Position numbers and translations under genes: made by a program. This document shows positions 35,608 through 38,430 of a stretch of DNA of 38,525 nt, piece after piece; within the stretch, counting starts at the first letter, position 1; every line of letters begins with the position of its first letter. The DNA lies in contig JAFGGO010000050.1 in assembly GCA_016930515.1 (NCBI GenBank), positions 1 through 38,525 on the forward strand. The letters are read 5' to 3'. The notes beneath the pieces are model-generated. The model searched no databases. It was not told where the DNA came from and saw only the letters and a program-made list of their open reading frames with translations. This stretch comes from Promethearchaeota archaeon. Its GTDB lineage: Archaea; Asgardarchaeota; Lokiarchaeia; Sigyniarchaeales; SOKP01.

Positions 35608-35829
35608 GAAAAAAGAAAAAAAAGCAGCATACCAGAATGATCCGAAATACATGAGGATCGCTAAGGCAGATTACAAGTAAAGGGAAAAGCACGAGTTAAT
35701 CTACCTTGATGGTGAGTATAAGCGTTGGTATCCAGTAAAAGATTTATTAGTGCGAGACGGATATATTTACACTCCTCGATGGGCAATAAAAAAAAATAAA
35801 AATGATCATTTTAAAGATCTTTATATTTT

Positions 35830-38430
35830 TCACAAAATTGCACCATAATAGACCTCAAAAGTGTGTCCGTAAGTTACGCCGATAGTACTCGCAGTTTGCT
35901 CAAAATCTCGATCCAATAGAACTCGGCCAGTTATTGTGGCAATGCTTATGTAATGTGCTTCTAGTTTAAGGCTATTAACGACGGACGGAAGGATCTCTCT
36001 AAATTTTTCGTTACTTTCTATTATTTGAGTTATCGTTTTTTGGTCAGTCGCCCCTACTTGCGTTTTAAAATAAAAAATCAACTGAGCGGTAGTGGATAAT
36101 TCACTATTTTTATAGAATGGTTGTTTTTCGGGCGGTCCGTGTTTTTCTTCCCAAGTACGGCAGATAAACGGTATTTGACACGCAAACCAATACCACACTT
36201 GACGGATGAAAAAATGAACAATACCAGAAGTTGGGTTCCAAATATTACCAACTATTCCCATATGATCGTGCGAAATCATGACATATTTTTTATCTTTCTC
36301 CTTCCATTCGTTTTTAGTATATATTTTACCACAATATTGCATTATTTTATCTTCAACAAACGCTCTTGGAATCGTTTTTGGATATTCGCTCGATAAAAGC
36401 ACCACAATTTCAAATCGAATTCGTGGATCAGAAATTACTAAAAGATGGCCCCTCCAGATCATATAATTGTATTTTGGATCTTTTTCAGGAACCAAAAGAA
36501 ACCAAGGTGCTCCACCTGTGGAACTACCCATTGTTTTCAGGTAATTCAAATATTGCATCATCGCAGCAATCTCCAATTTGACGCGACTTTTCCAGGCTGG
36601 ATGCCTTGGGCCTATTGTTCCTGCTTTGGAGGGAAAATTTGGGATAAAATACTCTGCTACTGTTGGCATCCAATCTCCTTTCTTGTGCCATCCTTCGACA
36701 CCAAGTTGATGACGAATTTTTCTTGCCTCTTCAAGAAGATGTTCCGCAGAAATGTTATCTTTATCATTTCCTCTAATAAGAAGACATTCTGCTAATTCTA
36801 TCATTCCTCGGGCCTCTCCAATTCGATTTTTAAGTTTCTGATCGATAGTAATTGCTTTTTTATGGTTATTAATTGCAGCATCAATATTTCCGATTACTCG
36901 ATTTAAGGATCCTATATCATTGTAACGAATTGCGATCATTTCTTGATTACCAATTTTCACTTCTAAATCTAAAGCTTCTTGATAATATTCAAGCGCTTGT
37001 TTTGGATTAGTCTTTTTACATGTATCTCCAGTTAGTCCTGTTAATTTAGCCATTAGAGCGAGATCTTTTTCTTCTCCTCTTGATTTTTCCATATTCAAAG
37101 CAGTTTTGAATTTCTTCAAAGCAATATCGTCCATCCCATATTTTTGATCTATAATACCAAGAGTCATGAGCGTCGATACTTGAATAATGGGATTTTTTAA
37201 TTTTTCACCTATATCTGAAGCTTGAAAGAGAGGATATTTTGCAGCAGCCATCTCACCTGTCTGAATCAATAATTTTCCTTGATTAATTAATGCCATTGCT
37301 AAAGGAAATCCCCCTGGATCGCTTCTTTTTGTTAATGATATTATCCTATTTTGTATTGGAGCTGCTAAACTAAATCGATTGTAATTAATAAAAAGGTTTT
37401 CTACAAAACGGAGTGCACTAATTTCATTAGGTGGTTCGAAATGTGTATCTAACCATAGTTCGATAGGAATAGTATTATCTCCTTTTGATTTATCTAATTG
37501 GTTGTCTATTGTGTTGGGAAACATCATTCTTAAAATTTCAAGTGTTTGTCCTTGAACGAGTCTAACAGGTATATCTATTCTCTCTCCAATATTTCTTAAT
37601 AGTTCAAAAATATCCCTGGATCCTTGTTTAGGGATTTCATCCTCCTCTAATTGAAGAATTTCTCTTGGATTTAAAATTAAAGGTTTTTTACCGTCTCTAT
37701 CACTGTGATGATCAATCCATATTAAACCAACAAGACCATCCATTCGAGATAGTTCAGGCATTATATCAAAATCGTCTCCTCCACCATATCCCATTACAAT
37801 TAATATCCTCCCTTCGTCGATCTTTTCGAATAAATGACGCTGATAAAGAGGTAATGAAAATATTTCTTCTCCGGGAGCTTTATCTTTAGAAAGTGCATCC
37901 AATGTAGTTTTGATGCTATTTCGTGTCTTTTTTCCCGTGAAATAATTAATAGGAGATCCGTGGATTTTATAAACACGGTATTGATTTAATTTTGAATCTG
38001 GATCTTGATATTGAATAAAATCTTCGGGAGTTATTACTGCGATTCTGGAATATTCTGAATTAATTTCAATATTACTCAAGGCATGCTCTATTAAACAATC
38101 GAAATTAGTTGTTAGAACAAGATCTCCCGAAATAATCCGGTTAGCTAAAAATTGATGCAATGAGTTTGGTAATACATTCTCTTGTACGAAATAATCCATC
38201 AATTTTAGTTTAGGATCTATTTGATCCCGCCATTCCTGTATAACTCTTTCATAACGGAGCTCCTTAAGTGATAAAAGATCGTTCTCGAATTTTAGAGCAG
38301 AAAAATGTATTATAGCTGAGATGATTCGATGAACTGAAGCCAATCCTGCCGGTTTATCAACAGAGATTCCCGCTCCAACTAACCAAGTTATTGATCTTGA
38401 TGAAATCAGATCTAATATTTCATCATTCAT
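35830..38430 (-). CDS. SIR2-like NADase - TPR - UFC1-like E2 - UFM1-like fusion protein
   Basis: SIR2 motifs LVGAGIS, TTNFD, KIHGS and MGYGGGD (aa ~15-240). TPR helices at aa ~340-580. UFC1-like domain at aa ~596-756. UFM1-like beta-grasp at aa ~784-866. Confidence 0.85.
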   Translation of the reverse strand: MNDEILDLISSRSITWLVGAGISVDKPAGLASVHRIISAIIHFSALKFENDLLSLKELRYERVIQEWRDQIDPKLKLMDYFVQENVLPNSLHQFLANRIISGDLVLTTNFDCLIEHALSNIEINSEYSRIAVITPEDFIQYQDPDSKLNQYRVYKIHGSPINYFTGKKTRNSIKTTLDALSKDKAPGEEIFSLPLYQRHLFEKIDEGRILIVMGYGGGDDFDIMPELSRMDGLVGLIWIDHHSDRDGKKPLILNPREILQLEEDEIPKQGSRDIFELLRNIGERIDIPVRLVQGQTLEILRMMFPNTIDNQLDKSKGDNTIPIELWLDTHFEPPNEISALRFVENLFINYNRFSLAAPIQNRIISLTKRSDPGGFPLAMALINQGKLLIQTGEMAAAKYPLFQASDIGEKLKNPIIQVSTLMTLGIIDQKYGMDDIALKKFKTALNMEKSRGEEKDLALMAKLTGLTGDTCKKTNPKQALEYYQEALDLEVKIGNQEMIAIRYNDIGSLNRVIGNIDAAINNHKKAITIDQKLKNRIGEARGMIELAECLLIRGNDKDNISAEHLLEEARKIRHQLGVEGWHKKGDWMPTVAEYFIPNFPSKAGTIGPRHPAWKSRVKLEIAAMMQYLNYLKTMGSSTGGAPWFLLVPEKDPKYNYMIWRGHLLVISDPRIRFEIVVLLSSEYPKTIPRAFVEDKIMQYCGKIYTKNEWKEKDKKYVMISHDHMGIVGNIWNPTSGIVHFFIRQVWYWFACQIPFICRTWEEKHGPPEKQPFYKNSELSTTAQLIFYFKTQVGATDQKTITQIIESNEKFREILPSVVNSLKLEAHYISIATITGRVLLDRDFEQTASTIGVTYGHTFEVYYGAIL

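Follow-up and report, generated by a model that had tools for sequence, protein, structure and literature searches.

In the 38,525-nucleotide contig JAFGGO010000050.1 of the Promethearchaeota archaeon assembly GCA_016930515.1 (the whole stretch is referred to as the window), a gene on the minus strand encodes an 866-residue protein, referred to as the query, in which a SIR2 domain and tetratricopeptide repeats (TPRs) are followed by a UFC1-like E2-fold (conjugating enzyme) domain and a C-terminal UFM1-like ubiquitin-like (Ubl) domain. The explanation that best fits the data, to which we give a probability of roughly 0.62, is that a Ufm1-type tag was turned into a built-in, non-conjugatable domain docked on its own dead E2, the pair forming a regulatory head of the SIR2-TPR protein. 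The Ubl is most likely a fixed binding domain and not a tag. Among the points in its favour are the position of the stop codon, the divergence of both domains and their predicted docking.

The stop codon and the glycine register

The 154 genomes of the order were searched with residues 590–866 as the query. Stand-alone UFC1-like genes of ~185 amino acids (aa), 43–55% identical to residues 593–765, were identified in 23 relatives. Small open reading frames (ORFs) directly upstream of these genes matched residues ~780–862 and encode 88–89-aa Ufm1-like proteins ending in ...FGNTFDIIDRG(I/V)VG (tail ...FGNTFDIIDRGIVG), with blastp E values against the query Ubl down to 1.4e-8. Across 22 Lokiarchaeales loci, the Ufm1-like genes share the ...IIDRG[IV]VG end. 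Homologues of Ufm1 from Asgard archaea appeared in print in 2026 (Nat Microbiol, PMC12962969); UFM1 and UFC1 had been called eukaryote-only by an earlier survey (PMC10183829).

Direct reading of the minus strand gave GGT GCA ATT TTG TGA AAA ATA TAA as the 3' end of the gene, confirming the TGA at 35832–35830 and the in-frame AAA ATA TAA behind it. A preliminary description of this DNA had placed that stop exactly at the conjugating glycine. The register against human UFM1, as first proposed, was weak (1/15 identities); the placement was nevertheless upheld by the relatives' tags, by a hidden Markov model (HMM) built without the query and by structural alignment. In the alignment of the tags (A1), the query is colinear with its relatives and ungapped over the last 35 residues, with YGHTFEVYYGAIL over FGNTFDIIDRGIVG; L866 sits opposite the penultimate Val, and the query is blank in the Gly column. 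The HMM of 19 relatives, query excluded, matched residues 782–860 (45.4 bits, E 4.4e-16). Since this match spans nodes 4–81 of 88, node 88 (Gly) falls on 'residue 867', which is the stop.

An AlphaFold model of the Ubl, made with A1, had a mean confidence (pLDDT) of 86.3 and the topology beta-beta-alpha-beta-alpha-alpha-beta. The ten best Foldseek matches to the model were all UFM1 chains (TM by target 0.68–0.87), and VIA gave Z scores of 11.1–12.4 for UFM1 versus ~8–9 for SUMO, UBX and ubiquitin. VIA paired model residues 87, 88, 89 and 92 with UFM1 residues 77, 78, 79 and 82, so that L866 corresponds to Val82 and the stop to Gly83; the register, which a structural alignment might have moved, stayed in place. 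The stretch from G855 (UFM1 G71) to the C-terminus counts 11 residues in the query, the last being Leu, versus 12 in the relatives and in UFM1; the result is given as this residue count because the modelled tail is of low confidence. Another tail register, in which a one-residue deletion upstream and a change of Gly to Leu would make the TGA the ancestral stop, requires a gap and has a lower score than the ungapped alignment. In either register there is still no terminal Gly.

The Ubl fold is UFM1-like and the domain is homologous to the Asgard Ufm1-like tags, so the original assignment as a UFM1-like domain stands both in fold (Foldseek, VIA) and by HMM homology. The link to eukaryotic UFM1 is by structure only: none of the 20 members of A1 matched PF03671, and a PDB profile search with A1 returned no UFM1 match. 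The last 97 residues of the protein (770–866) had no Pfam match, PF03671 being absent even at E up to 10, and a genome-wide search of the source genome with PF03671 returned noise only. A UFM1-type modifier has a C-terminal Gly, exposed or exposable by trimming a short extension; this protein ends in ...GAIL. Asgard tags end in DRG(I/V)VG and stand alone or N-terminal to the E2; the query domain ends in YGAIL and lies C-terminal to its E2. It does have the character of an integral UBL, a beta-grasp inside a larger protein and without a conjugatable C-terminal Gly.

Divergence and predicted docking of the E2–Ubl pair

Among the 18 columns of the tag that are at least 85% conserved in the relatives, 11 are altered in the query Ubl. 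They include a PxP motif, conserved D, E and K residues, and the tail (G to A, V to L, Gly absent), which has changed from DRGIV to YGAIL; the Y, F, G, L and F that determine the fold are retained. The query Ubl is 21–26% identical to the relatives' tags, which have a mean identity of 67% among themselves, and the query E2 is 44–54% identical to relatives that share 66%. Maximum-likelihood distances between query and relatives were 2.66 for the Ubl (0.70 among relatives) and 1.52 for the E2 (0.99 among relatives), and the terminal branch of the query was the longest in the Ubl tree (1.36; median 0.12). The Ubl domain has evolved roughly 2.5-fold faster than the neighbouring E2 domain. Because the whole domain, tail included, is so strongly diverged, the loss of the Gly looks old, and the recent lesion entertained in the preliminary description was not supported.

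In the E2 domain, Ser720 stands where 14 of 14 aligned relatives have Cys (MISHDH in the query versus MICH[DE]H). Both UFMylation modules are without their reactive residue, as had been proposed.

Other members of the family vary at the same two sites. P0019 (288 aa; L042:83–949) is a metagenomic Ufm1-UFC1 fusion in which the tag Gly is replaced by Asn (...DGALVN) and the E2 Cys likewise by Asn (YVMINTPG); its contig is 1.1 kb long, with no neighbours readable. P0019 represents a second, independent loss of both residues, a hint that dead pairs recur. Two further UFC1-like proteins lack the Cys: P0014 (513 aa) has Ser (FTMLSHDH) and continues into leucine-rich repeats (LRRs), and P0017 (236 aa) has Ala (YAMIAHDAF) and a Cys-rich tail. 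The Cys is kept in P0004 (330 aa), a UFC1-like protein with a long tail that ends in CxxC...CxxC, and in P0003 (277 aa; L043:1373–2206), a Ufm1-UFC1 fusion adjoining a ThiF gene. The P0003 tag is apparently without the ...VG junction (YGLDYEIINNTLEI), on a provisional alignment of that junction.

Complex prediction with the E2 domain (alignment A2) and the Ubl (A1) gave a score of 0.82, the best of three controls scoring 0.00. This score is reached by 58 of 80 solved complexes and by 2 of 110 mismatched pairs. Runs agreed in at least 90% of contacts, with a partner pLDDT of at least 82. As a UFC1-UFM1 conjugate has been solved (8bzr), part of the docking pass may reflect that known structure. 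Confident contacts involved E2 residues 630–643, 665–668 and 746–758 and Ubl residues 827–842 and 853–863. The E2 residues of the predicted interface are 25% identical to the relatives, versus 49% elsewhere in the domain (permutation p 0.0014), and the relatives themselves conserve the interface and non-interface sets equally. The E2 changes run from charged or polar to small or hydrophobic residues (K, N, R, E, R, Q and N to G, G, A, S, D, I and P), and those on the Ubl side are D, R, N and T to Y, G, Y and L; changes of this kind would be the expected look of a permanently buried surface. Ubl interface residues were not significantly better conserved than the rest of the domain (0.28 versus 0.21, p 0.19). 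As a model, the complex prediction supports binding between the E2 and the Ubl.

Gene layout, origin of the fusion and rival explanations

The layout of the gene is given in Table 1. Pfam placed SIR2_2 at residues 104–220, TPRs at ~345–576 and UFC1 at 602–757 of the 866-aa protein; with the E2 domain scanned alone, UFC1 (PF08694) scored 26.3 bits against a cut-off of 25. The SIR2 motifs GAGxS, TTNFD, KIHGS and GYxGxDDFDI are all intact, and the invariant columns of the alignment with eight Asgard paralogues (A3) are kept. With the ORF intact and all SIR2 motifs kept, the gene is not a decaying pseudogene. PADLOC gave weak SIR2/ThsA-type matches to the protein. In its SIR2-TPR part, the protein is a member of a very large family in Asgard archaea: >500 matches, typically ~800 aa long, carry SIR2_2 and TPR-type repeats only, and none of them has UFC1. 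As the C-termini of the family hold only TPRs, the E2–Ubl pair replaces the usual distal repeats.

Table 1. Features of the SIR2-TPR-E2-Ubl gene in the window
Feature	Position	Strand	Basis
SIR2-TPR-E2-Ubl gene, 866 aa	35830..38430	-	ORF and translation; Pfam SIR2_2, TPR_12, UFC1
SIR2_2 domain, residues 1–240	37711..38430	-	alignment A3 with eight Asgard paralogues
TPR region, residues ~345–576	36703..37398	-	Pfam TPR_12, TPR_MalT, TPR_1
UFC1-like E2-fold domain, residues 590–772	36115..36663	-	PF08694 and stand-alone UFC1-like relatives
Ser720 (TCG), replaces catalytic Cys of E2 domain	36273-36271	-	alignment with relatives
Linker PPEKQPFYK, ~9 residues, E2 end to Ufm1 start	36088..36114	-	alignments A1, A4
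Ufm1-like beta-grasp domain, residues 782–866, ends ...TYGHTFEVYYGAIL	35833..36087	-	HMM, AlphaFold model, structural matches
TTG codon, L866	35835-35833	-	sequence
TGA stop at conjugating-Gly position	35830..35832	-	sequence, A1, VIA, HMM
AAA ATA TAA, in frame past stop	35821..35829	-	sequence
T5-A-T9-A-T2 tract, 28–45 nt past stop	35785..35802	-	read from sequence

The source genome (4.0 Mb, 190 contigs, 94% complete) is a metagenome-type assembly. The start of the SIR2 gene lies 95 bp from the contig end, by which the upstream context is cut off. Downstream, a 151-aa HNH_3 endonuclease gene (window 35152–35607, plus strand) is convergent with the SIR2 gene and lies 222 bp from its stop. Elsewhere in the window, a 770-aa ORF (6059–8371, minus strand) weakly matches an Arc capsid domain (PF21395) at 24.6 bits, short of the cut-off of 27.

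In the relatives, the tag and the E2 belong to an operon, which in a well-assembled genome (L034:3661–12568, G098:C1) comprises a ThiF E1 (activating enzyme, 297 aa), an LRR protein (511 aa), a PCI protein (249 aa), a JAB-like protein (weak Prok-JAB match, 333 aa), the Ufm1-like tag (88 aa), the UFC1-like E2 (180 aa), a TPR protein (494 aa), an 83-aa ORF, a PCI/CTLH-like protein (162 aa) and a further LRR protein (347 aa). The operon is patchily distributed (36 of 400 genomes of the phylum). Where the two genes stand alone, the TTG or GTG that starts the UFC1-like gene overlaps the GGT TGA or GGG TGA at the end of the tag, as at L013:1199–1465 and at the same position in L008, L010, L012, L016–L018, L020, L021 and L028. 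At six loci (L006, L014, L015, L019, L022, L023) the Ufm1 frame runs into the E2 N-terminus, giving proteins of 273–278 aa that keep the ...IVG junction. The Ufm1-UFC1 pair is one that switches between split and fused forms.

In the source genome, no stand-alone Ufm1 or UFC1 was found, at the assembly's 94% completeness. The operon E1 is 50–84% identical across five operon-bearing genomes; its best match in the source genome was 37% identical and is of a paralogue type that the operon-bearing genomes carry too. The JAB-like partner was recovered in 5 of 5 control genomes and not in the source genome, where the PCI partner was not found either (a query not run on the controls). A conjugating system would pair a cognate E1 with an E2 bearing its active-site Cys; here the residue is Ser720 and no operon-type E1 was found. 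Five same-genus genomes gave no match to the E2–Ubl query; together with the source genome, these assemblies are 68–96% complete. A 415-aa ThiF-type ORF in the source genome lies ~2.4 kb from a 122-aa ORF with a weak Ufm1-profile match (E 0.017; G000:C26:3753–6864); the two are probably a separate ubiquitin-type system and not a Ufm1 operon.

Both ends of the junction between the E2 and the Ubl are preserved. In the query, the E2 ORF is preserved to its last residues (WEEKHG versus WDEKHG-stop in the relatives) and, after the linker, so is the very start of the tag ORF (NSEL versus MASEL). In the MAFFT alignment used for the E2 end (A4), the Ufm1 rows fell over the E2 region, and only the E2 rows were used. 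A full E2 end, a linker of ~9 residues and a full tag start indicate that two complete genes were joined, E2 then tag, which is the reverse of the operon order in the relatives. Permutation by duplication was considered, and a tblastn search downstream of the stop detected no UFC1 remnant above chance.

How the Gly codon itself was lost bears on two further proposals of the preliminary description. It had derived the stop from GGA by one substitution and had read an ancestral pro-form ending L-G-K-I from the codons that follow. The TGA is indeed one substitution from GGA, but an ancestral GGA is only one path, as the relatives use four codons (GGT, GGA, GGG or GGC) for the conserved Gly. The pro-form is not needed, since 12 of the 20 relatives with tabulated ends stop right after the Gly, ten of them with TGA; four relatives run 2–3 residues past it (GN, ART, WYE and F). 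A captured tag gene would have ended in Gly-stop. Parsimony therefore rates the loss of the three nucleotides of the Gly codon before an ancestral TGA no lower than GGA to TGA. The data fit both routes, the second with a former K-I extension.

Copies of the whole fusion were sought widely. No orthologous fusion was found by a word-indexed search of 5.8 billion clusters, by exhaustive HMMER over 1.84 billion representatives, or in 154 genomes from the order and 400 from the phylum. The exact 41-mer across the stop, with N at the critical base, had no second copy among metagenome and genome contigs, and a related-loci search with residues 740–866 gave no SIR2-TPR-E2-Ubl or E2-then-Ubl copy. Only stand-alone or Ubl-then-E2 forms were returned.

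The sequence of events favoured here would be as follows. The TGA would be the true gene end and the last 85 residues a fixed, Ufm1-derived beta-grasp domain. A full UFC1-type E2 gene and a full Ufm1-type tag gene from the Lokiarchaeales accessory operon would have been joined, E2 then Ubl, and put at the C-terminus of a SIR2-TPR protein, where the paralogues carry more TPRs. The pair would then have lost the terminal Gly, the DRG(I/V)VG tail, many conserved surface residues and the E2 Cys while its folds were retained. The two domains most likely pack on each other, probably in cis, via a remodelled and more hydrophobic surface, and the pair may act as a protein-binding or regulatory head of the intact, NAD-consuming SIR2 domain. 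Several points weigh against this account. Ser720 and tail residues 864–866 lie outside the confident contacts, and the docking is a model result only, on alignments built in this analysis. The gene is a singleton, with no second copy of the fusion in any collection searched, and for that reason the T of the TGA has no independent support. The absence of the partner genes is unproven in an incomplete assembly, and the function of the module is entirely inferred.

Four other explanations were weighed against a fixed, docked domain. In an integrated decoy, the dead E2–Ufm1 pair would mimic UFM1-pathway proteins, and a viral effector that binds this bait would turn on the SIR2 NADase. Such a design would suit a module that has lost both reactive residues and kept its folds, that sits on the scaffold of a very large family otherwise carrying only TPRs at that end, that gives weak SIR2/ThsA-type matches in PADLOC, and whose parent operon is patchy. 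The idea is somewhat weakened because no authentic pathway was found to imitate: neither a stand-alone Ufm1 or UFC1 nor a cognate E1 or JAB-like partner turned up in the source genome, and the five same-genus genomes had no E2–Ubl match, in assemblies 68–96% complete. A Ubl surface as diverged as this one would also be a poor imitation of a real tag, and no viral partner is known. A decoy is judged unlikely. It is quite doubtful, too, that the E2–Ubl part is a functionless appendage decaying neutrally on a working SIR2-TPR protein. The singleton status, the fast divergence of the Ubl and the loss of both reactive residues are what a relic would show, but ~277 residues have stayed open without frameshift or internal stop, the fold-determining residues are kept and model confidently, the E2 divergence is concentrated at the predicted interface, and the complex prediction passes its controls.

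The remaining two explanations concern the TGA itself. If the true or very recent sequence were GGA followed by a short extension, the Ubl would still be a conjugatable tag. The single substitution that separates the two codons, the four relatives with short extensions past the Gly and a single gene copy in a fragmented metagenome-type assembly speak for a recent lesion or an assembly error. The explanation becomes improbable when set against the heavy divergence of the rest of the Ubl and its tail, the parallel loss of the E2 Cys, the failure to find a cognate E1 and peptidase, and the lack of any ...VG ending in the other reading frames at the gene end. If the TGA were recoded or subject to programmed readthrough, the protein would end in X-K-I, at the second in-frame stop two codons downstream; Loki-type archaea are known to use selenocysteine. 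TGA is an ordinary stop here, terminating 6 of 28 long ORFs in the window. An Rfam scan of 35400–36100 at E up to 10 gave no selenocysteine insertion (SECIS) model, no other recoding element and no gathering-score match, two matches being at chance level. Archaeal transcription terminates at T-tracts, and the T5-A-T9-A-T2 tract is, by analogy, a likely oligo-T terminator; beginning 28 nt past the stop, it leaves little 3' untranslated region. Gly is not the residue usually inserted by near-cognate readthrough of UGA, and recoding is considered very improbable.

A bolder version of the decoy idea can also be framed, in which the sensor head of an Asgard SIR2 NADase is a dead, permuted and permanently docked UFM1-type E2–tag pair. 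Such a protein would be the archaeal equivalent of the integrated decoys in plant immune receptors. It would guard a UFM1-like pathway against viral interference, or be a remnant of such guarding, with the loss of Gly and Cys recurrent, as P0019 might suggest. This combination is offered as a speculation that we consider quite unlikely.

Relation to known systems

If the favoured reading is correct, a non-catalytic module has already been made out of the archaeal Ufm1/UFC1 pair, with a UFM1-type fold serving as a built-in domain beside its own dead E2 on a SIR2 NAD-consuming scaffold of the kind known from prokaryotic immunity. It would be a concrete, testable case of ubiquitin-like tags turning into binding domains, and may tie antiviral sensing to a UFM1-type pathway among the archaea most closely related to eukaryotes. 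The weight of the case is limited by its being a single gene in a single assembly.

The nearest known system is the Asgard operon tag, with which the query shares full-length homology, the beta-grasp, the GxTF[DE][IV] motif that precedes the tail and the pairing with an E2 of UFC1 type. The operon tag differs in its terminal Gly and DRG(I/V)VG tail and in lying upstream of, or fused N-terminal to, the E2; the query, at 21–26% identity, lies within an 866-aa SIR2-TPR protein in a genome where the cognate E1 and JAB-like genes were not found. The Asgard in-frame Ufm1-UFC1 fusions (six loci) hold the same two modules in one polypeptide. They run Ubl-then-E2 and, with the ...IVG junction and the E2 Cys both kept, can be cut and put to use, whereas the query is permuted and dead at both sites. 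Eukaryotic UFM1 (PF03671; PDB 5hkh, 5ia7, 8bzr) is the best structural match and is colinear to the end, but the query has no Pfam or PDB sequence match to it, lacks Gly83 and is not a free modifier.

Two classes of non-covalent binder provide the closest functional parallels. Integral UBL domains, such as those of Rad23, parkin and USP7, are built into larger proteins, have no conjugatable C-terminal Gly and bind non-covalently. The query resembles them as a beta-grasp built into a larger protein without such a Gly; theirs are ubiquitin-type, whereas the query domain is of UFM1 lineage and stands in cis with its own dead E2. UEV pseudo-E2s (Mms2/Uev1 and the UEV of TSG101) have no Cys and bind ubiquitin non-covalently. 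The query E2 is likewise an E2 fold without a catalytic Cys that is predicted to bind a Ubl non-covalently; it is unlike the UEVs in its UFC1-type fold, in having its partner Ubl fused in cis, and in that its binding is predicted only.

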